Origin: Candidatus Microgenomatus auricola
GTDB lineage: Bacteria > Patescibacteriota > Patescibacteriia > SBBC01
Length of the DNA stretch: 62,972 nt
NCBI GenBank assembly: GCA_005239865.1
Contig: SBBC01000020.1
Coordinates: forward strand, 1-62,972
Direction of reading: 5' to 3'
Below the pieces are notes generated by a model, which was given only the letters and a program-made list of their open reading frames with translations, was not told the origin of the DNA and did no database searches. Of this stretch, positions 1,506-58,904 are shown in pieces (the stretch's first letter is position 1; every line of letters starts with the position of its first letter). The translations under genes were made by a program, and so were the position numbers.

Positions 1506-3266
1506 CTACGGCCCCAACTTCCTGTCCCGAATTTCTTTTACCAACCGCTCAACAAACGACTTCTTCGCCATCACGCTGACCGTTTTCTTGCCACGAACGC
1601 GGACGTGGAGCTTTGTTGATTTTGTTTCCTTGTCACCAATCACCAGCATGTACGGGACTTTCATTTTCTCGGCTTTGCGGATTTTGTAGCCGACCGTTTC
1701 ATTGGCGTCGTTCACGTGTGTGCGAATACCTGATTCGTTTAGGGTCTTGGAGAGTTTCATGCTCGGCTTCACGTGCCGTGAACCAACCGGAACGATGGCG
1801 ACTTGCACTGGCGCCAGCCAGGTCGGCAGCCGTCCGGCCAGGTGCTCGATCATGATGCCGATGAAGCGCTCGAACGAGCCAAAAATGGCGCGGTGGATGA
1901 CAACGGGGCGCTGCTTCTTCCCGTGCTCGTCTGTGTACTCGACGCCGGGCAGGCTCGGGACCATGACGAGGTCTGCTTGGATCGTGCAGAGCTGCCAGCG
2001 GCGGCCGAGGGAATCCGTGACGTCAATGTCTATCTTCGGCGCGTAGAACGTCCCTTCTTTCGGTTTCTCTTTGTACTCGAGCTTGTTCGCGCGGAGTGCT
2101 TGGGCGAGCGCTTCTTCCGCTTCTTTCCACCGTTTTGGGTCACCCATCGCATCATCGGGTTTTGTTGAGAGGTAAAAGCTCGGCGTAAACCCGAAGATCT
2201 TATAGATCGTTTTCGAGAGCTTCAGGAGGTTCGTGATCTCCGTTTCGAGTTGGTCGGGGCGGCAGTAGATATGGCAGTCGTCCTGCGTGATCTGCCGAAC
2301 GCGGAAGAGTCCGCCGAGCGTGCCGGAGAGTTCATTGCGATGGATTCGACCGATTTCCGCCAAACGAATCGGCAGGTCGCGGTAGCTGTGCGCTTTGACC
2401 GCGAAGATCACGGCTGACTCCGGACAGTTCATTGGCTTCAAGAAGAATTCTTCGCCCTTGCCCTCGACGCGGAACATGTTGGTCCGGTAGTGCTTGAGGT
2501 GGCCGGATCGGGCGAACAGCTCGGGCTTGACCATCAGCGGAGTTTGCACTTCTTGGTAACCGGCCGGAACCAGGTAATCACGCAGCAGTTTTTCCAGTTC
2601 GTTCCATACGACCATGCCATTGGGGTGCCAAAAGACCGCGCCGGGCGCGACCGCGTCAAAGCTGAACAGGTCGAGTTCCTGCCCAAGCTTGCGGTGATCA
2701 CGCGCTTCGGCTTCTTCTAGCACTTTCAGGTGGTGTTCGAGCTCGGGTTTGGTGGCAAAAGCCAGGCCGTAGACGCGCTGGAGCATCGGCTTCGATGAGT
2801 CGCCGCGCCAGTAAGCGCCAGCCACTTTGGTGAGCTTGAAGGCCTCGGGATTGATCTCGGACGTATTCTCGACGTGTCCGCCGCGGCAGAGGTCGACGAA
2901 TTTTCCGATTCGGTAGAAGCTGATGGCGGCGTTTTGCTTTTTCAGTTCATCAAACAGTTCGCGCTTGAACGGATTGCTGGCCAAGCGGCGGTCGGCCTGT
3001 TCAAGCGACGAGGCGTTGACTTGCGCCATGGTCAGTTTTTGCTGGACGAGTTCGCGCATTCGTTTCTCGAACTTTTGGAGGTCCTGAACAGTCAACGGCC
3101 GGTCAACCTTGAAGTCATAGTAAAAACCGTGCTCAATGGTCGGACCGATCGCCGGTTGGGCTTCAGGGAATTGTTCAAGCACCGCTTGCGCCAGCAGGTG
3201 GCTCAAGGTGTGGCGGATGCGATCAAGGATGTCAGGCTGGGGTTGGTGTGCCATACGGAACGCCAA
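1506..3266 (-). CDS. thrS: threonine--tRNA ligase (no N-terminal TGS domain)
   Basis: 586 aa. HTLSHLLAQAV editing-domain motif near the N-terminus, HRKLGQELDLFSF, class II motif 2 FRVRQITQDDCHIY, motif 3 GSFERFIGIMIEH, C-terminal anticodon-binding domain. Confidence 0.95.
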   Translation of the reverse strand: MAFRMAHQPQPDILDRIRHTLSHLLAQAVLEQFPEAQPAIGPTIEHGFYYDFKVDRPLTVQDLQKFEKRMRELVQQKLTMAQVNASSLEQADRRLASNPFKRELFDELKKQNAAISFYRIGKFVDLCRGGHVENTSEINPEAFKLTKVAGAYWRGDSSKPMLQRVYGLAFATKPELEHHLKVLEEAEARDHRKLGQELDLFSFDAVAPGAVFWHPNGMVVWNELEKLLRDYLVPAGYQEVQTPLMVKPELFARSGHLKHYRTNMFRVEGKGEEFFLKPMNCPESAVIFAVKAHSYRDLPIRLAEIGRIHRNELSGTLGGLFRVRQITQDDCHIYCRPDQLETEITNLLKLSKTIYKIFGFTPSFYLSTKPDDAMGDPKRWKEAEEALAQALRANKLEYKEKPKEGTFYAPKIDIDVTDSLGRRWQLCTIQADLVMVPSLPGVEYTDEHGKKQRPVVIHRAIFGSFERFIGIMIEHLAGRLPTWLAPVQVAIVPVGSRHVKPSMKLSKTLNESGIRTHVNDANETVGYKIRKAEKMKVPYMLVIGDKETKSTKLHVRVRGKKTVSVMAKKSFVERLVKEIRDRKLGP

Positions 3267-3372
3267 GAAGCAACGCTCTAAGTCTAGCGCGTCTGCTCGA
3301 TCTTGGCTACTCCAAGCACCCGTCCCTTGACCTGGTTCACCCTTCCTCGTCGCCGGTCCGCTTGAGGAGGGG

Positions 3373-19835: not shown

Positions 19836-20780
19836 ATGGTTGATCTCGCCGTCAGCCTGCTCGCGCTCGCCTCGTTCGTCGGCGTTGTCACCATCGTGGC
19901 CCGACGATTTCCAACGCTGGCCGCCATCGATACGACGAGCATCCCGGTCGAACGGCAGGGCAAGCTTAAAACCCGCTTAATCGAGCAGCGGCTGAAGCGA
20001 AAGGTCGAACTGGCGCTGCGGGCCCTCCTGGCGGCGTTGAGACCGATGAGTCACGCTTTCACGTCGTTTCTGCGACAGCGTTACGAACGGCTCCTGGCTC
20101 TCGAACGGCAATACCGAACGCGGGTGACGACGCCAACCGCGTTGAGCCCCGAAGAACGCGAGAAAAAGGACTTCGAGATCGATCGTCTCTTAACGGCGGC
20201 GCACAGCGCCCTCGACCGGGGAGCGATTGAGGAAGCGGAACGAGACGCGATCGACGTCATCGCCAAAGACCCGCGGAACGTCAGGGCTTACCGCGTGTTG
20301 GCCTCGGTCTATCTCGAGAACAAGGACTACGAACACGCCCGCGAGACGCTTGAGTTTATTATCCAGCGCCTTCACGTTGAGGATGACGAGGTCTACGCCG
20401 AACTCGGACAAGTTGACTCCGGTGAAGGAAAACTTGAGGAGGCGAAGCGCGATCTTGAGAAATCGATTGCCGTTAACAGTCAGGCAGCCGAACATTTTCT
20501 CGACCTCTGTCGCGTCAACCTGGCGCTCGGCGATACCGCGAGCGCCTTCGAATCCTGCAAGCGCGCCGTCGAAATCGAACCGAATAATCCGAAGTTCCTT
20601 GACGCGCTTGTGGAAACTAGTATTGTGTCGGGGAAGAGGGAATGGGCCAGCGAGACCCTGGAAAAACTGCGCGCCGTAAATCCGGAGAATCAAAAACTCG
20701 AGGAATTCCAGGCCCGCATTGCCAATCTCCCTAAAAAACAAAATGTCAGGCCGCGATCTCATAAGCTGGTAAGATCATAG
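19836..20780 (+). CDS. TPR-repeat protein with N-terminal membrane anchor
   Basis: 314 aa with a TM helix followed by several 34-residue TPR-like repeats (AYRVLASVYLENKDYEHA, etc.). Confidence 0.7.
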   Translation: MVDLAVSLLALASFVGVVTIVARRFPTLAAIDTTSIPVERQGKLKTRLIEQRLKRKVELALRALLAALRPMSHAFTSFLRQRYERLLALERQYRTRVTTPTALSPEEREKKDFEIDRLLTAAHSALDRGAIEEAERDAIDVIAKDPRNVRAYRVLASVYLENKDYEHARETLEFIIQRLHVEDDEVYAELGQVDSGEGKLEEAKRDLEKSIAVNSQAAEHFLDLCRVNLALGDTASAFESCKRAVEIEPNNPKFLDALVETSIVSGKREWASETLEKLRAVNPENQKLEEFQARIANLPKKQNVRPRSHKLVRS

Positions 20781-20827
20781 TCACGTCGAGACAGCTTGGC
20801 TGGTACCCCGCACCAACTTTCGCCCGA

Positions 20828-20903
20828 GCCCACGTAGCTCAGATGGTAGAGCAACTCCATGGTAAGGAGTAGGTCCGCGGTTCAAATCCGCGCGTGGGCT
20901 CCA
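20828..20903 (+). tRNA. tRNA-Thr(GGU), CCA encoded
   Basis: Hand-folded cloverleaf: GCCCACG/CGTGGGC acceptor, GCTC-AGATGGTA-GAGC D arm, ACTCC-ATGGTAA-GGAGT anticodon arm, CGCGG-TTCAAAT-CCGCG T arm, then T-CCA. Confidence 0.9.
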
Positions 20904-20926
20904 GCGAGGGCAGGCGGGGAAGAAGA

Positions 20927-20957
20927 AGGTCCGCGGTTCAAATCCACCCAGCGGCTC
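20927..20957 (+). other. echo of the tRNA-Thr(GGU) 3' part (non-foldable)
   Basis: The 19-nt string AGGTCCGCGGTTCAAATCC at 20927-20945 is identical to 20871-20889 inside the tRNA. The following bases (ACCCAGCGGCTC) cannot close a T stem. Confidence 0.6.
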
Positions 20958-21045
20958 TCGAGTAGATGCCAAAATGATCAAGCGAGCCTGATGGTAAACC
21001 CTCCGGCCGAAGCCGAACATTACATTGTCGAGAACTTTCAAGATC

Positions 21046-21132
21046 GGGTGGGTACCGAAGCGGTCAAACGGGCCTGACTGTAAATCAGGTGGCCTCCGGC
21101 CTTCGTAGGTTCGAATCCTACTCCACCCACCA
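21046..21132 (+). tRNA. tRNA-Tyr(GUA), class II, CCA encoded
   Basis: GGGTGGG acceptor, CCTGA-CTGTAAA-TCAGG anticodon arm, 15-nt variable arm, GTAGG-TTCGAAT-CCTAC T arm, TCCACCC-A-CCA. Confidence 0.9.
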
Positions 21133-21191
21133 CGCGTCAGATTCGGAAAAAGGAATGTGGTGCGGGATGGCCACCGGTCCCCGATCCAGTC

Positions 21192-21219
21192 GGGGATTCG
21201 AATCCTATCCCACCCACCA
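21192..21219 (+). other. echo of the tRNA-Tyr 3' end (degenerate T arm plus CCCACCC-A-CCA)
   Basis: GGGGATTCGAATCCTATCCCACCCACCA repeats TTCGAATCCTA and CCACCCACCA of the tRNA 87 nt downstream. The T stem does not pair. Confidence 0.55.
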
Positions 21220-21286
21220 GTTGCAAAAAAGTAAAAAAAGTAGTACTCTACATCAGCTATTGCTGATTCCCGTTCGAGCTAATATC

Positions 21287-21524
21287 GCCGGAGTAGCTCA
21301 ATGGTAGAGCATCGCTTTTGTCCCGCTCAATAACGTGGTTATCTGGTAATCGCGGGATCCTCGAAGTTCTTACAAAATCTTGCCGGGATAGCTCAGTGGT
21401 AGAGCAGCTGTTTTGTAAACAGCAGGTCGCAGGTTCAAATCCTGTTCCCGGCTCCACCCGACAAGATTTTGAGAACTTCGGGATAAAGCGGTGGTTGGGG
21501 GTTCGAATCCTCTCTCCGGCTCCA
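21287..21524 (+). tRNA. interrupted tRNA gene (Thr-UGU-like if joined 21321/21485) with a 163-nt insert in the anticodon loop
   Basis: 5' part 21287-21321 and 3' part 21485-21524 join into a 75-nt cloverleaf. It has 7/7 acceptor pairs (GCCGGAG/CTCCGGC), 5/5 anticodon-stem pairs, a GGGGG-TTCGAAT-CCTCT T arm and T-CCA. See findings. Confidence 0.6.
21382..21456 (+). tRNA. tRNA-Thr(UGU), CCA encoded (nested inside the interrupted tRNA)
   Basis: GCCGGGA/TCCCGGC acceptor, GCTGT-TTTGTAA-ACAGC anticodon arm, GCAGG-TTCAAAT-CCTGT T arm, then T-CCA. Confidence 0.9.
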
Positions 21525-21553
21525 GGCATACTCGTCAGTAAACAACCTCTTCA

Positions 21554-21715
21554 ATGTCGCAAGAAAATTTAGTCGGTCTGGCATGCGCCGAGTGCAAGCG
21601 GGTCAATTACTTCACCACGCGGAATAAGAAAAAAATCAAGGCCAAGTTGTCACTCAAGAAGTATTGTCCATGGGACAAGAAGCATACCGTTCATACCGAG
21701 GCGAAGCTCAAATGA
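21554..21715 (+). CDS. rpmG: 50S ribosomal protein L33
   Basis: 53-aa ORF absent from the ORF track because it is under 60 aa: MSQENLVGLACAECKRVNYFTTRNKKKIKAKLSLKKYCPWDKKHTVHTEAKLK. This is the typical L33 pattern (CxxC...YxTxxNKK...KLxLKKYCP...H). Confidence 0.85.
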   Translation: MSQENLVGLACAECKRVNYFTTRNKKKIKAKLSLKKYCPWDKKHTVHTEAKLK

Positions 21716-21726
21716 CGCATCAGTTT

Positions 21727-21779
21727 GGGGGTGTAGTGTCAGTGGTTAGCACGGCGGTCTCCAATCCCGCCCCAATGCT
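21727..21779 (+). other. tRNA-Trp-like 5' half (acceptor strand, D arm, CCA anticodon arm)
   Basis: GGGGGTG-TA-GTGT-CAGTGGTTA-GCAC-G-GCGGT-CTCCAAT-CCCGC. There is no T arm of its own. Its acceptor strand pairs with CACCCCT at 21875-21881. Confidence 0.55.
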
Positions 21780-21853
21780 GGGGGCGTCGTTCAACGGCAG
21801 GACCCAGGTCTCCAAAACCTGTAATGGGGGTTCGATTCCCTCCGCCCCTGCCA
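21780..21853 (+). tRNA. tRNA-Trp(CCA), CCA encoded
   Basis: GGGGGCG/CGCCCCT acceptor, CAGGT-CTCCAAA-ACCTG anticodon arm, GGGGG-TTCGATT-CCCTC T arm, then G-CCA. Close to the E. coli tRNA-Trp layout. Confidence 0.9.
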
Positions 21854-21885
21854 TTGGGGCGGGACAAGTCCTAGCACCCCTGCCA
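21854..21885 (+). other. 3' shell of the tRNA-Trp-like outer element (helix arm plus acceptor 3' strand plus CCA)
   Basis: TTGGGGCGGG (21854-21863) is the perfect complement of CCCGCCCCAA (21766-21775). CACCCCT-G-CCA at 21875-21885 complements the outer 5' strand GGGGGTG. Confidence 0.55.
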
Positions 21886-21913
21886 GGAGTCTATCTGTAG
21901 TCTCCGTTTACTT

Positions 21914-21938
21914 CGGGGCATAGCGCAGTTGGTAGCTC
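21914..21938 (+). other. tRNA 5' fragment (acceptor strand plus D arm)
   Basis: CGGGGCA-TA-GCGC-AGTTGGTA-GCTC resembles the 5' end of the downstream tRNA-Pro (CGGGGAT-TG-GCGC-AGTTGGTA-GCGC). No proper anticodon arm follows. Confidence 0.45.
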
Positions 21939-21986
21939 CGCACCACATGAGTGGTTGTCCGACGATAATTATCATCAAACAATTGG

Positions 21987-22018
21987 GTGCGGGGCAAGCG
22001 CGCGCGGCTGCCCCGCAC
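21987..22018 (+). other. GC-rich hairpin with a 10-bp perfect stem
   Basis: GTGCGGGGCA (21987-21996) pairs with TGCCCCGCAC (22009-22018), loop AGCGCGCGCGGC. Its 3' arm overlaps the 5' arm of the helix flanking tRNA-Pro. Confidence 0.6.
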
Positions 22019-22029
22019 GTCCGCTGTCC

Positions 22030-22102
22030 CGGGGATTGGCGCAGTTGGTAGCGCGCACGGTTCGGGACCGTGAGGTCGGGAGTTCGAGTCTCCCATCCCC
22101 GA
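22030..22102 (+). tRNA. tRNA-Pro(CGG), CCA not encoded
   Basis: CGGGGAT/ATCCCCG acceptor, CACGG-TTCGGGA-CCGTG anticodon arm, GGGAG-TTCGAGT-CTCCC T arm, discriminator A. Confidence 0.9.
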
Positions 22103-22112
22103 CAGAGCGGAC

Positions 22113-22165
22113 GTGCGGGGTTCGGGCGCACGAGGTCACCGGTTCGAGTCCGGTATCCCCAACCA
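22113..22165 (+). other. tRNA-Pro-like 3' part (9-nt anticodon-like loop, T arm, acceptor strand, CCA)
   Basis: GTGCG-GGGTTCGGG-CGCAC-G-AGGTC-ACCGG-TTCGAGT-CCGGT-ATCCCCA-A-CCA. The T arm is perfect and the loop keeps TTCGGG, but it is 9 nt long. No matching 5' acceptor strand was found. Confidence 0.5.
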
Positions 22166-22181
22166 AATCCATACGTCATTC

Positions 22182-22877
22182 ATGACATCACACCACAAAG
22201 CGCCCCGACACGTTGCGATCATCATGGACGGCAACCGCAGATGGGCGCGGAAGCACGGGAAACCGACATTGGAAGGCCATCGCGTCGGTTACCAAACGCT
22301 GAAGAAGATCGGCGACGCAGCGCTCGAACGGGGAGTAAAAATCCTGTCGGTCTGGGCATTTTCGACGGACAATTGGAAGCGGGCCAAACGGGAAGTGACG
22401 TTTCTCATGGGCCTGCTCGAATGGGTGCTGAAAGAGGAAATTGCCGAGTTTCACCGAAAGGACGTCAAGCTCCTCGTGACCGGCCGGATCCACGAACTTT
22501 CAGCCCGACTCCAGAATCTGATCGCCGACGCGATGAATCTCACGCGCGAAAACACCCACGGGATTTTGAATGTGCTCTTGAACTACGGAGGCCGCGAAGA
22601 AATTGTCGATGCGGTTCGGGCCATTGTCCGTGCCAAACCAGAGGCCGAAAGCGTTGATGAGAGGTTGATTGAGAAGCACCTCTACCGCTCCGAACTTCCG
22701 GATCCGGATCTCATCATTCGCACCAGCGGAGAACAGCGGTTGTCCGGCTTCATGCCTTGGCAGCTCGCCTATAGCGAGTTGGTGTTCGTCGATAAACTCT
22801 GGCCTGACTTCACTCCAAAGGATCTCGATGCCGCGCTCGAGGAATTTCGGCGGCGCGAGCGGCGCTTCGGGAAGTAG
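22182..22877 (+). CDS. uppS: undecaprenyl-diphosphate synthase (cis-prenyltransferase)
   Basis: HVAIIMDGNRRWA and RTSGEQRLSGFMPWQLAYSE motifs. Start MTSHHK at 22182, since the upstream part of the ORF covers tRNA sequence. Confidence 0.95.
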   Translation: MTSHHKAPRHVAIIMDGNRRWARKHGKPTLEGHRVGYQTLKKIGDAALERGVKILSVWAFSTDNWKRAKREVTFLMGLLEWVLKEEIAEFHRKDVKLLVTGRIHELSARLQNLIADAMNLTRENTHGILNVLLNYGGREEIVDAVRAIVRAKPEAESVDERLIEKHLYRSELPDPDLIIRTSGEQRLSGFMPWQLAYSELVFVDKLWPDFTPKDLDAALEEFRRRERRFGK

Positions 22878-58333: not shown

Positions 58334-58474
58334 GAAGAGGCGAGGGGTTAGGGGTTAGTATTTGGTAGTTGGTATGTGGTATTGCGTATTTAGGGAGCAG
58401 GGGAGGGAAATCGTGGTTTCGGGACCTTACGTCGTCCGGCCGATCCGATTCAGGAGGGTGTACCCCCCTTCCGT

Positions 58475-58717
58475 CCCCCTTGTGAGAGGGGGCAGTATAC
58501 CCCTCTCCGCTTCGTGACTGCGTTGCGCTTGTCACTTTGCTCCCCTCCCCTTAGTCCCCGCGTACGCGGGGAGGGGAGGTGTATCTTGCCCCCGATCTAG
58601 TCGGGGGTTGACCCCAGGCCGTGATCGCGGTACTGTTATGATATACCGAAGAAAAACCGAAGTCAAGATACAGCTCCCCTATGCAAGGGGAGCGGAGGAA
58701 GTCCCGCGTAGCGGGAC
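58475..58717. repeat. cluster of GC-rich hairpin (REP-like) elements
   Basis: Hairpins at 58475-58492, 58544-58579, 58589-58607, 58674-58692 and 58701-58717. Two share the core CCCGCGTA(C)GCGGG followed by GGGGAGG. Confidence 0.7.
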
Positions 58718-58904
58718 GACGGGGAGGGGTTTTAGGCCCAAAATTAGAGAAAATTTTTATCCTCTCGCCCTTTTAATGATTCAACAGGAAAAGTCCGTCC
58801 TTCGGTTTTTCCACATAGAACTAGATGCGAAGCAGGGTACCGGAGCAAAGCGACTGGTACCCTGTGGATAACTTCGGGTTTTATTCGGTGACGCCGCGCC
58901 GTTG

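Follow-up and report, generated by a model that had tools for sequence, protein, structure and literature searches.

Known bacterial tRNA introns are group I introns of at least about 200 nucleotides (nt), bulge-helix-bulge introns and split tRNAs being archaeal or eukaryal, and a tRNA cut in its anticodon loop without ligation is non-functional. Here we describe a tRNA-Thr(UGU) gene at positions 21287-21524 of contig SBBC01000020.1 from Candidatus Microgenomatus auricola; the whole stretch analysed, 62,972 nt, is called the window. The anticodon loop of this gene is split by an insert that contains a second, complete tRNA-Thr(UGU). The data point to a tRNA-carrying insertion cassette rather than a spliced intron, and to one previously undescribed: no description of nested bacterial tRNA genes was found in the searchable full-text literature or in the paper on rRNA insertions in the candidate phyla radiation (CPR), as had been supposed in the first-pass annotation of this DNA, which was made from the sequence alone.

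In phages T4 and T6, the GIY-YIG protein SegB cleaves tRNA genes internally at RAWTSGAAC, which is complementary to the T-loop sequence GTTCSAWTY (PMC13096335). SegB cleavage and homologous recombination lead to preferential inheritance and segmental amplification of tRNA genes (PMC2330249; PMC13096335). The intervening sequences (IVSs) of 23S rRNA are extended helices added to hairpin tips or replacing them; they are sporadic and regarded as selfish or horizontally spread, and some contain a 23S_rRNA_IVP (S23p) open reading frame (ORF) (PMC4990558; PMC11270868). Insertions in the rRNA of CPR bacteria have been sorted into group-I-like, GIY-YIG-bearing non-intron, IVP-bearing and short ORF-less ones, with tRNA not mentioned (PMC11270868); the same classes and protein families occur around the nested tRNAs described here.

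From its L33 and UppS homologues, the organism belongs to the CPR, adjoining metagenome-assembled genomes (MAGs) named Candidatus Kerfeldbacteria. For comparison, about 165 CPR and other loci, designated by L-numbers, were fetched through ribosomal protein L33. The parts of the nest, and the gene that follows it, are:

21287-21321, plus strand: 5' half of the outer tRNA-Thr(UGU), with acceptor strand, D arm, anticodon-stem strand and loop UUUGU; its stems covary with L166 and L168
21322-21357, plus strand: hairpin A, with closing stem CCCGC/GCGGG(A) and a variable interior containing an ATAAC/GTTAT hairpin
21358-21381, plus strand: 5' arm of helix B, TCCTCGAAGTTCTTACAAAATCTT, abutting the 5' end of the inner tRNA; one copy in the window
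21382-21456, plus strand: inner tRNA-Thr(UGU), intact, CCA encoded, called by ARAGORN and by Rfam (RF00005, 75.8 bits); presumed working gene
21457-21462, plus strand: trailer CCCGAC, 6 nt, between the inner CCA and helix B; CCGGC in L166, L168 and L003
21463-21484, plus strand: 3' arm of helix B, AAGATTTTGAGAACTTCGGGAT, assigned from the fold; together with the outer 3' half 93% identical to L003 over 57 nt
21485-21524, plus strand: 3' half of the outer tRNA-Thr(UGU), with AA, anticodon-stem strand, variable loop UGGUU, T arm, acceptor strand, U and CCA
21554-21715, plus strand: rpmG (ribosomal protein L33; Pfam PF00471, E = 7e-19), 29 nt 3' of the outer CCA

The first-pass annotation had taken segments 21287-21321 and 21485-21524 to be two halves of one gene, and its letters for both match base for base. 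Joined, they do form the canonical 75-nt cloverleaf with anticodon UGU that it had proposed, called by ARAGORN as tRNA-Thr(tgt), with 7/7 acceptor, 4/4 D, 5/5 anticodon and 5/5 T-stem pairs (three of all these pairs being G-U) and the T loop TTCGAAT; A15 and U48, as read from the sequence, make an alternative Levitt pair. On a tRNA profile hidden Markov model (HMM) trained on 226 unrelated CPR tRNAs, the joined outer sequence scores 59.8 bits and the inner tRNA 55.7 bits. No gene was called in a shuffled copy of the joined sequence, and the ARAGORN and HMM scores against shuffles rule out a chance match. The inner gene was also where it had been placed and is the top Rfam tRNA match of the window. 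On the uncut window, ARAGORN and Rfam report the inner gene only; the intron-tolerant scan that had been suggested, run as ARAGORN in intron mode, misses the outer gene and returns one spurious Arg call. Standard tRNA finders and Rfam thus see only inner genes, and the outer shells, which are much of the cluster, are invisible to standard annotation.

The insert of 163 nt consists of hairpin A, helix B and the intact tRNA, has no ORF and includes 88 nt that are not tRNA. Its nested structure, already outlined in the first-pass annotation, is borne out by the fold, but its edge is not unique: the boundary is uncertain by one T, so that 21322-21484 (anticodon-loop position 36|37) and 21321-21483 (35|36) are both possible. 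The minimum free energy (MFE) fold of the 238-nt region 21287-21524 is the nested design itself, with outer cloverleaf, hairpin A, helix B and inner cloverleaf, at -97.4 kcal/mol (z = -5.7; 0/200 shuffles were equally stable). In this fold helix B has 9 + 11 base pairs (bp), or 9 + 9 + 4 with a bulged U, 20-22 bp overall, and hairpin A spans 21320/22 to 21356/58, with ATAAC/GTTAT inside. A known RNA family for the insert, whether group I, riboswitch or other, was sought and rejected, since Rfam returned only tRNAs, both at the gathering score and at E <= 10. Like the IVSs of 23S rRNA, the insert places an extended helix (B, with hairpin A) in a loop, here the anticodon loop, and is sporadic among relatives; it differs in that its host is a tRNA and that it carries a complete replacement gene.

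Identical sequence across the region is present in Logan contigs of two other sequencing runs (SRR6943130 and SRR6261452), and homologous but diverged nests occur in independent MAGs. An assembly chimera, named in the first-pass annotation as a way in which the arrangement might prove false, is thereby ruled out.

The gene order rpsB-tsf-TPR (a tetratricopeptide repeat gene)-[tRNA Thr(GGU), Tyr, Thr(UGU)]-rpmG-[tRNA Trp, Pro(CGG)]-uppS places the nest on the housekeeping chromosome. Six lineages share this synteny (the window, L003, L004, L166, L168 and L170). They are roughly equidistant, with UppS identities of 67-79%, and saturated at four-fold synonymous sites (37% identical in uppS); no clean tree, and hence no dated insertion phylogeny, was obtained for them. 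The window, L003, L166 and L168 have the Thr(UGU) insert; L004 and L170 lack it, and their plain tRNA-Thr(UGU) provides the empty site that the first-pass annotation had proposed looking for. L004 has five plain tRNAs with short spacers and no shells or hairpins (2600-3360), yet is as distant as the nested lineages; nesting is therefore a trait of whole lineages, which may depend on whether some enzyme is present. In L170, Thr(UGU) is plain, but Tyr and Pro are nested.

In L166 the Thr(UGU) nest has the window's architecture: outer half, hairpin A, helix B enclosing the inner tRNA, outer half. Its inner tRNA-Thr(GGU) lies in the D loop of an undecayed outer copy, the two being identical over most of their length, and its inner Tyr occupies an outer Tyr's T loop, that outer gene having a double hairpin at G34|U35 as well. 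The Trp shell of L166 is intact. Nests are deeper in L003 and L168, where the shells are orthologues of the window's inner Thr(UGU) and inner Pro and enclose newer tRNA cassettes; the T arms of these shells are replaced by YCCCGCC-loop-GGCGGGA hairpins. L168 holds two units of hairpin A plus helix B, one within the other, and nesting depth reaches 3-4 levels among the relatives.

The outer gene ends 29-31 nt before rpmG in the window, L003 and L168, and the plain gene ends 32 nt before it in L004 and 62 nt in L170. The outer gene stands close to the spacing of the plain L004 gene; therefore it is the ancestral resident, and insertion into it has been repeated. In L166, 470 nt with an ORF in them lie between the shell and rpmG. 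This ORF (L166:2193-2564), between the 3' end of the nested Thr(UGU) and rpmG, is 23S_rRNA_IVP / bAvd-like (PF05635, E = 1e-30), and the other lineages have merely about 30 nt in its place. The comparison with rRNA IVSs differs here too: the window insert has no PF05635 ORF, and the L166 copy lies 3' of the outer tRNA, not in the insert.

The explanation we prefer, with a little better than even confidence, is that homing or double-strand-break repair placed in the resident gene a copy of a cassette bounded by inverted repeats and bearing a replacement tRNA. The resident tRNA-Thr(UGU) would have been interrupted in its anticodon loop (U36|A37) by an ORF-less cassette of two stem-loop modules, hairpin A and helix B, the latter presenting the complete replacement tRNA-Thr(UGU). 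Spread would take place at the DNA level, with the tRNA halves serving as homology arms, which would explain why host and cargo always have the same anticodon. In this clade the drivers may be free-standing nucleases, for which the small GIY-YIG proteins beside tRNAs elsewhere in the CPR are candidates. Since the cargo would itself be a target, the process could repeat, giving Russian-doll nests. Disrupted copies lose arms or gain further hairpins. The outer gene in its ancestral place (about 30 nt 5' of rpmG), the empty sites of L004 and L170, the reinsertion in L003 and L168 and the dead Trp, Pro and Tyr shells of the cluster described below support this explanation. If it is correct, the element follows a new selfish strategy, disrupting an essential conserved gene and carrying a full spare copy, which would make it both harmless and able to invade its own cargo.

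Nested and partly duplicated tRNAs are widespread in the CPR, so that the window nest, the sole subject of the first-pass annotation, is one case of a cluster-wide and clade-wide phenomenon. Among 398 tRNAs surveyed in the fetched loci, 16 have their own 5' end repeated upstream, 27 their own 3' end repeated downstream and 5 both; the corresponding wrong-side controls gave 2, 0 and 0. Full or partial nests were found for Thr, Tyr, Trp and Pro in lineages labelled Minisyncoccia, Buchananbacteria, Patescibacteria and others. Insert ends recur, as 5'-(T/C)CCCGC(C/A)...GCGGGA-3' and also as CCCGCCTGCC.../...GGCGGGCAGG, and so do insert sites in distant lineages: Trp after A37, Tyr between G34 and U35, and the T loop between C56 and R57 with a double hairpin. 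In L043, the inner and outer Tyr copies are identical over most of their length. Near-identical pairs such as this one and the Thr(GGU) pair of L166 imply in-situ copying or gene conversion.

Small GIY-YIG genes (PF01541, E = 1e-15 to 1e-17) lie no more than 122 nt from a tRNA in 8/8 cases, while 18% of locus bases are within 150 nt of one. In L034, L054, L019 and L064, the gene stands between a shell fragment and an intact tRNA. These single-domain ORFs, of about 80-90 amino acids (aa), are:

L015:3988-4257, L019:1974-2237, L032:3117-3401 and L034:2708-3022, GIY-YIG ORFs
L054:1565-1945, L058:2651-3001, L064:2828-3085 and L076:2866-3186, GIY-YIG ORFs

The adjacency to tRNAs in all eight cases, several of them between shell fragment and intact copy, is a likeness to SegB. 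The settings differ: the CPR nests are on a bacterial chromosome and on an inverted-repeat stalk, SegB works in a phage with a tandem tRNA array. The cassettes of the window and its closest relatives have no endonuclease gene, and the CPR proteins are single-domain putative nucleases of about 80 aa. Should the homing explanation hold, the link between GIY-YIG proteins and tRNA amplification would extend from phages to the bacterial chromosome.

Distantly related lineages have a double hairpin inserted at the T-loop sequence GGTTC|RAATC (C56|R57) of Tyr and Thr shells, and the hairpin stems show compensatory changes:

L003:142-181 and 602-642, T-loop double hairpins
L168, about 822-850, T-loop double hairpin
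L019, about 1903-1933 and about 2254-2284, T-loop double hairpins

This site is the DNA motif reported as the cleavage preference of SegB. The T-loop hairpin inserts, and the replacements of T arms described below, would destroy a SegB-like recognition site.

Other described elements share features with the cassette. Integrative elements that target tRNA genes also disrupt an essential tRNA and bring replacement sequence, but they are kilobases long, integrase-driven and duplicate the 3' part of the tRNA (attL/attR), whereas the window element has 163 nt, no integrase was found for it, and a whole tRNA lies between both halves. A dispersed repeat resembling miniature inverted-repeat transposable elements (MITEs) or repetitive extragenic palindromic (REP) sequences was considered and rejected: MITE-like terminal inverted repeats are present, in that hairpin A ends in CCCGC/GCGGG and the helix B arms pair, but the helix B arm is unique in the 63-kb window, and the insert has no target-site duplication. 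The arm is also absent from viral contigs.

Interrupted genes with and without a spare copy can be told apart within the same set of loci. When tRNA frames longer than 95 nt with acceptor, D arm and T arm intact were sought without bias, 11 of the genes found had no intact tRNA inside; all 11 are Thr(GGU), with an insert of about 190 nt after U36. This insert is group-I-like, with U-G at the 5' splice site in 9/10 sequences, a P7 of GACUG/CAGUC, a terminal G, 31 covarying pairs and the motif AAGAUACAGUC. Rfam does not recognise it, and ARAGORN misses the genes that contain it. The loci are:

L010:3334-3595, L024:2115-2383, L025:1271-1529, L028:1280-1549 and L041:1603-1873, Thr(GGU) insert
L069:1866-2128, L077:676-958, L079:2024-2306, L087:790-1052 and L098:1004-1270, Thr(GGU) insert
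L080:2565-2845, minus strand, related insert in another tRNA

No other intact Thr(GGU) was found in the 8 group-I-interrupted loci that were re-checked. By contrast, wherever a hairpin or cassette interrupts a gene, an intact tRNA with that gene's anticodon lies within the interruption or next to it. The window insert resembles bacterial group I tRNA introns, and the CPR Thr(GGU) insert in particular, in its position after U36, the same anticodon-loop position as in those 11 other CPR loci, which could suggest a degenerate group I intron with a replaced core. The insert itself speaks otherwise. It has just 88 nt of non-tRNA sequence, with no P3-P9 or R and S motifs and hence no ribozyme core; the 5' exon has the final U, but the last letters of the insert are ...GGGAU (or ...GGGA) and not the terminal G of such introns; it matches no intron family in Rfam at the gathering score or at E <= 10; and it has no sequence similarity to the CPR Thr(GGU) intron. 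We consider it very improbable that a degenerate group I intron, an assembly artefact or chance accounts for the locus.

Several observations weigh against the homing explanation. In an alignment of the window, L166 and L168, 98.5% of the cells of the nested structure are paired, and 11 pairs have changed on both sides: six in the outer stems, four in the inner stems and one in helix B. Despite the saturated synonymous sites, the window and L166 keep the whole outer cloverleaf unimpaired, and L168 keeps almost all of it; free decay of the outer halves, which the first-pass annotation had named as one sign of a dead pseudogene, is thus not what these three lineages display. Joined outer tRNAs score as high as inner ones on the tRNA HMM. 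The covariation that the first-pass annotation had proposed looking for in helix B proved to be a single compensatory change (A-U/U-A), the other 19/20 pairs being invariant, which makes this helix more conserved than the tRNA stems. Between the window and L003, identity is 93-95% for pieces of shell and cassette, as high as for functional tRNAs, and 80% for the rpmG coding sequence. Across the CPR, all placeable inserts lie in loops, at 26|27 or in the place of whole arms, as though constrained by the fold of the shell. Further, no integrase, transposase, homing endonuclease, reverse transcriptase, RtcB, EndA or RNase III was found with Pfam among the 50 ORFs of the window, which covers 63 kb of the genome; no GIY-YIG gene was found in the Kerfeldbacteria-like nests, of which only L166 has a 23S_rRNA_IVP ORF; no direct repeat that could be a target-site duplication flanks the insert; and the origin of the stalk is not explained by homing. 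Since a neutral relic should decay, repeated re-homing, gene conversion or selection on the fold of the shell must be invoked.

Judged from the sequences, gene conversion is probably active, because in L003, L168 and L170 each shell's halves seem to be patched together from window-type and L166-type alleles (4-6 sequences) and inner and outer copies can be identical over most of their length; it can imitate covariation. The closing stem of hairpin A is kept in L166 and L168, and its interior is unalignable. The strand asymmetry of G-T versus A-C mismatches in flanking helices (5 vs 1, mostly in doubtful AT-rich helices) rests on too few cases to use.

The intact, compensated outer cloverleaf of three lineages is what would be expected if the gene were truly excised and ligated, an unlikely alternative in our judgement. 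One precursor would then yield two functional tRNA-Thr(UGU): RNase P and 3' processing would free the inner one, a putative structure-specific endonuclease would remove the UCC...GGA modules (hairpin A and the stubs of helix B), and a ligase such as RtcB would join the halves. In silico, removal of the inserts also gives callable tRNAs for L166 Trp and L015 Thr(GGU), and helix B is conserved in sequence more than pairing alone demands. The inserts are whole stem-loops with the ends 5'-(U/C)CCCGC...GCGGGA-3' and occupy D, anticodon and T loops or position 26|27, much as archaeal non-canonical introns do; with these they also share the occurrence of several inserts per gene, similar insert ends in different tRNAs and, as in split tRNAs, helices that join the halves. 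Stated for the whole group, and just as doubtful, the CPR would have its own protein-dependent removal of 5'-UCCCGC...GCGGGA-3' stem-loops from tRNA precursors at many positions, the window locus being a true nested gene.

The constant spare copy argues otherwise: an intact tRNA with the matching anticodon accompanies every gene interrupted in this way, and the re-checked group-I-interrupted genes of the same set of loci have none. Many shells are beyond repair, namely Trp and Pro in the window and the outer levels of L003 and L168, with T arms replaced and acceptor mismatches. The thermodynamically predicted MFE and centroid folds contain no bulge-helix-bulge but a multi-helix junction with two closed stem-loops; neither a splicing endonuclease nor RtcB is in the window, a fraction of the genome; and the mosaic-like halves suggest that gene conversion can mimic covariation. 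Unlike the archaeal cases, this is a bacterium, no bulge-helix-bulge is predicted, an intact backup is constant and a whole tRNA lies inside the insert. The first-pass annotation had set a nested, spliced precursor beside an inserted replacement cassette; the comparative data favour the cassette, and we regard the precursor as improbable. Splicing of the shells, if real, would give Bacteria an equivalent of the non-canonical tRNA splicing of Archaea.

The arms of decayed shells suggest another way in which the fold could matter. T arms are replaced by hairpins in shells of L003, L009 and L043; in dead shells the T arm, and in L003 Pro also the anticodon arm, is swapped stem-loop for stem-loop by a YCCCGC(C)-loop-(G)GCGGGR hairpin, with the four-way junction kept:

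L003:526-541 and 1424-1439, arm-replacing hairpins
L009, about 2418-2433, arm-replacing hairpin
L043, about 1642-1656 and about 1682-1697, arm-replacing hairpins

The cassette may have been inserted as we propose and its outer shell since kept by selection as a non-decoding RNA scaffold, a possibility we rate slightly lower than splicing. The outer halves would pair with each other, avoiding mispairing with the near-identical inner tRNA, and might serve as 'punctuation' for RNase P and RNase Z, freeing the rpmG mRNA. A scaffold would account for the conserved pairing of the outer stems and helix B without splicing and for hairpin swaps that keep the four-way junction (L003 Pro and Thr, L009); it also agrees with the spacing between the outer 3' end and rpmG, similar to that of the plain gene in L004, and with a promoter-like element upstream of the whole unit. 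It leaves unaccounted for the retention of universal tRNA residues and of the outer anticodon-loop sequence. The Trp and Pro shells of the window have lost their fold, in L166 the shell and rpmG are 470 nt apart with an ORF between, and the processing invoked is a prediction. Shells that are spliced or act as scaffolds would be the first non-group-I tRNA intervening sequences in Bacteria and would bear on the origin of archaeal split and multi-intron tRNAs.

All five tRNAs of the window cluster, read from 20700 to 22200, are accompanied by shells or shell remnants of the same identity. The further features are:

20927-20959, plus strand: 3' remnant of a tRNA-Thr(GGU) shell, AGGTCCGCGGTTCAAATCC..., 3' of the intact Thr(GGU) at 20828-20903
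21159-21219, plus strand: 3' remnant of a tRNA-Tyr shell, with insert end GGTGCGGGA, variable arm, hairpin CCCCGATCCAGTCGGGG replacing the T-stem strand, and TTCGAATCCTATCCCACCCACCA
21221-21249, plus strand: promoter-like element, -35 TTGCAA (21221-21226), 17-nt spacer, -10 TACTCT (21244-21249); weak, read by eye
21727-21885, plus strand: Trp nest, tRNA-Trp at 21780-21853 on an 11-bp stalk, TCCCGCCCCAA / TTGGGGCGGGA, in a dead Trp shell
21914-22165, plus strand: Pro nest, tRNA-Pro(CGG) at 22030-22103 on a 15-16 bp stalk (22011-22025 / 22106-22120), in a decayed Pro-like shell

Of the Trp shell, a 5' half (21727-21764) and a 3' stub (21865-21885) are all that remain; anticodon strand and T arm are missing and removal of the insert yields no tRNA, while the 5' half is 95% identical to L003. 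The Pro shell survives as pieces 21914-21936 and 22121-22165 together with a hairpin insert at 21938-21992, and just 4/7 of its acceptor positions pair. The Tyr remnant is orthologous to the outer Tyr of L170, and its first nine nucleotides (21159-21167) pair with a 9-nt complement, CCCCGCACC, at 20806-20814.

The promoter-like element lies 38 nt 5' of the outer tRNA and was not called by a consensus promoter scanner. Similar pairs of -35 and -10 boxes 17 nt apart are in the same relative place in L003 (TTGCAA/TACAAT), L166, L168 and L170. Transcription of the cassette-bearing gene would start at this promoter and run on into rpmG, which is probably co-transcribed with the nest. Helix B would isolate the inner tRNA, presumably the working gene, from which RNase P and 3' processing would release a functional tRNA, while the outer halves would pair with each other as a non-decoding shell, splicing being unneeded.

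Shells coincide with contig ends in two of the fetched relatives: the L003 contig begins inside a Tyr shell and the L168 contig about 110 nt 5' of tRNA-Tyr. In these genomes, short-read assembly may break at nested tRNA repeats.

Hairpins of similar make occur elsewhere in the window. That all CCCGCC-loop-GGCGGG hairpins are shell elements was considered and rejected, several being ordinary terminators followed by T runs. The non-coding sequence at 57.8-59.3 kb, searched as a possible interrupted structural RNA, has no Rfam match at E <= 1. GC-rich hairpins at 58557-58574, 58590-58606 and 58703-58719 are clustered there in a mostly non-coding stretch of 1.4 kb. Only one small hairpin, CCCCGATCYAGTCGGGG, recurs, at 21179 and 58590, and CCCCGATCTAGTCGGGG, in the cluster at 58400-58740, equals the Tyr-shell hairpin CCCCGATCCAGTCGGGG at 21179-21195, giving 2 matches where 0.03 are expected.

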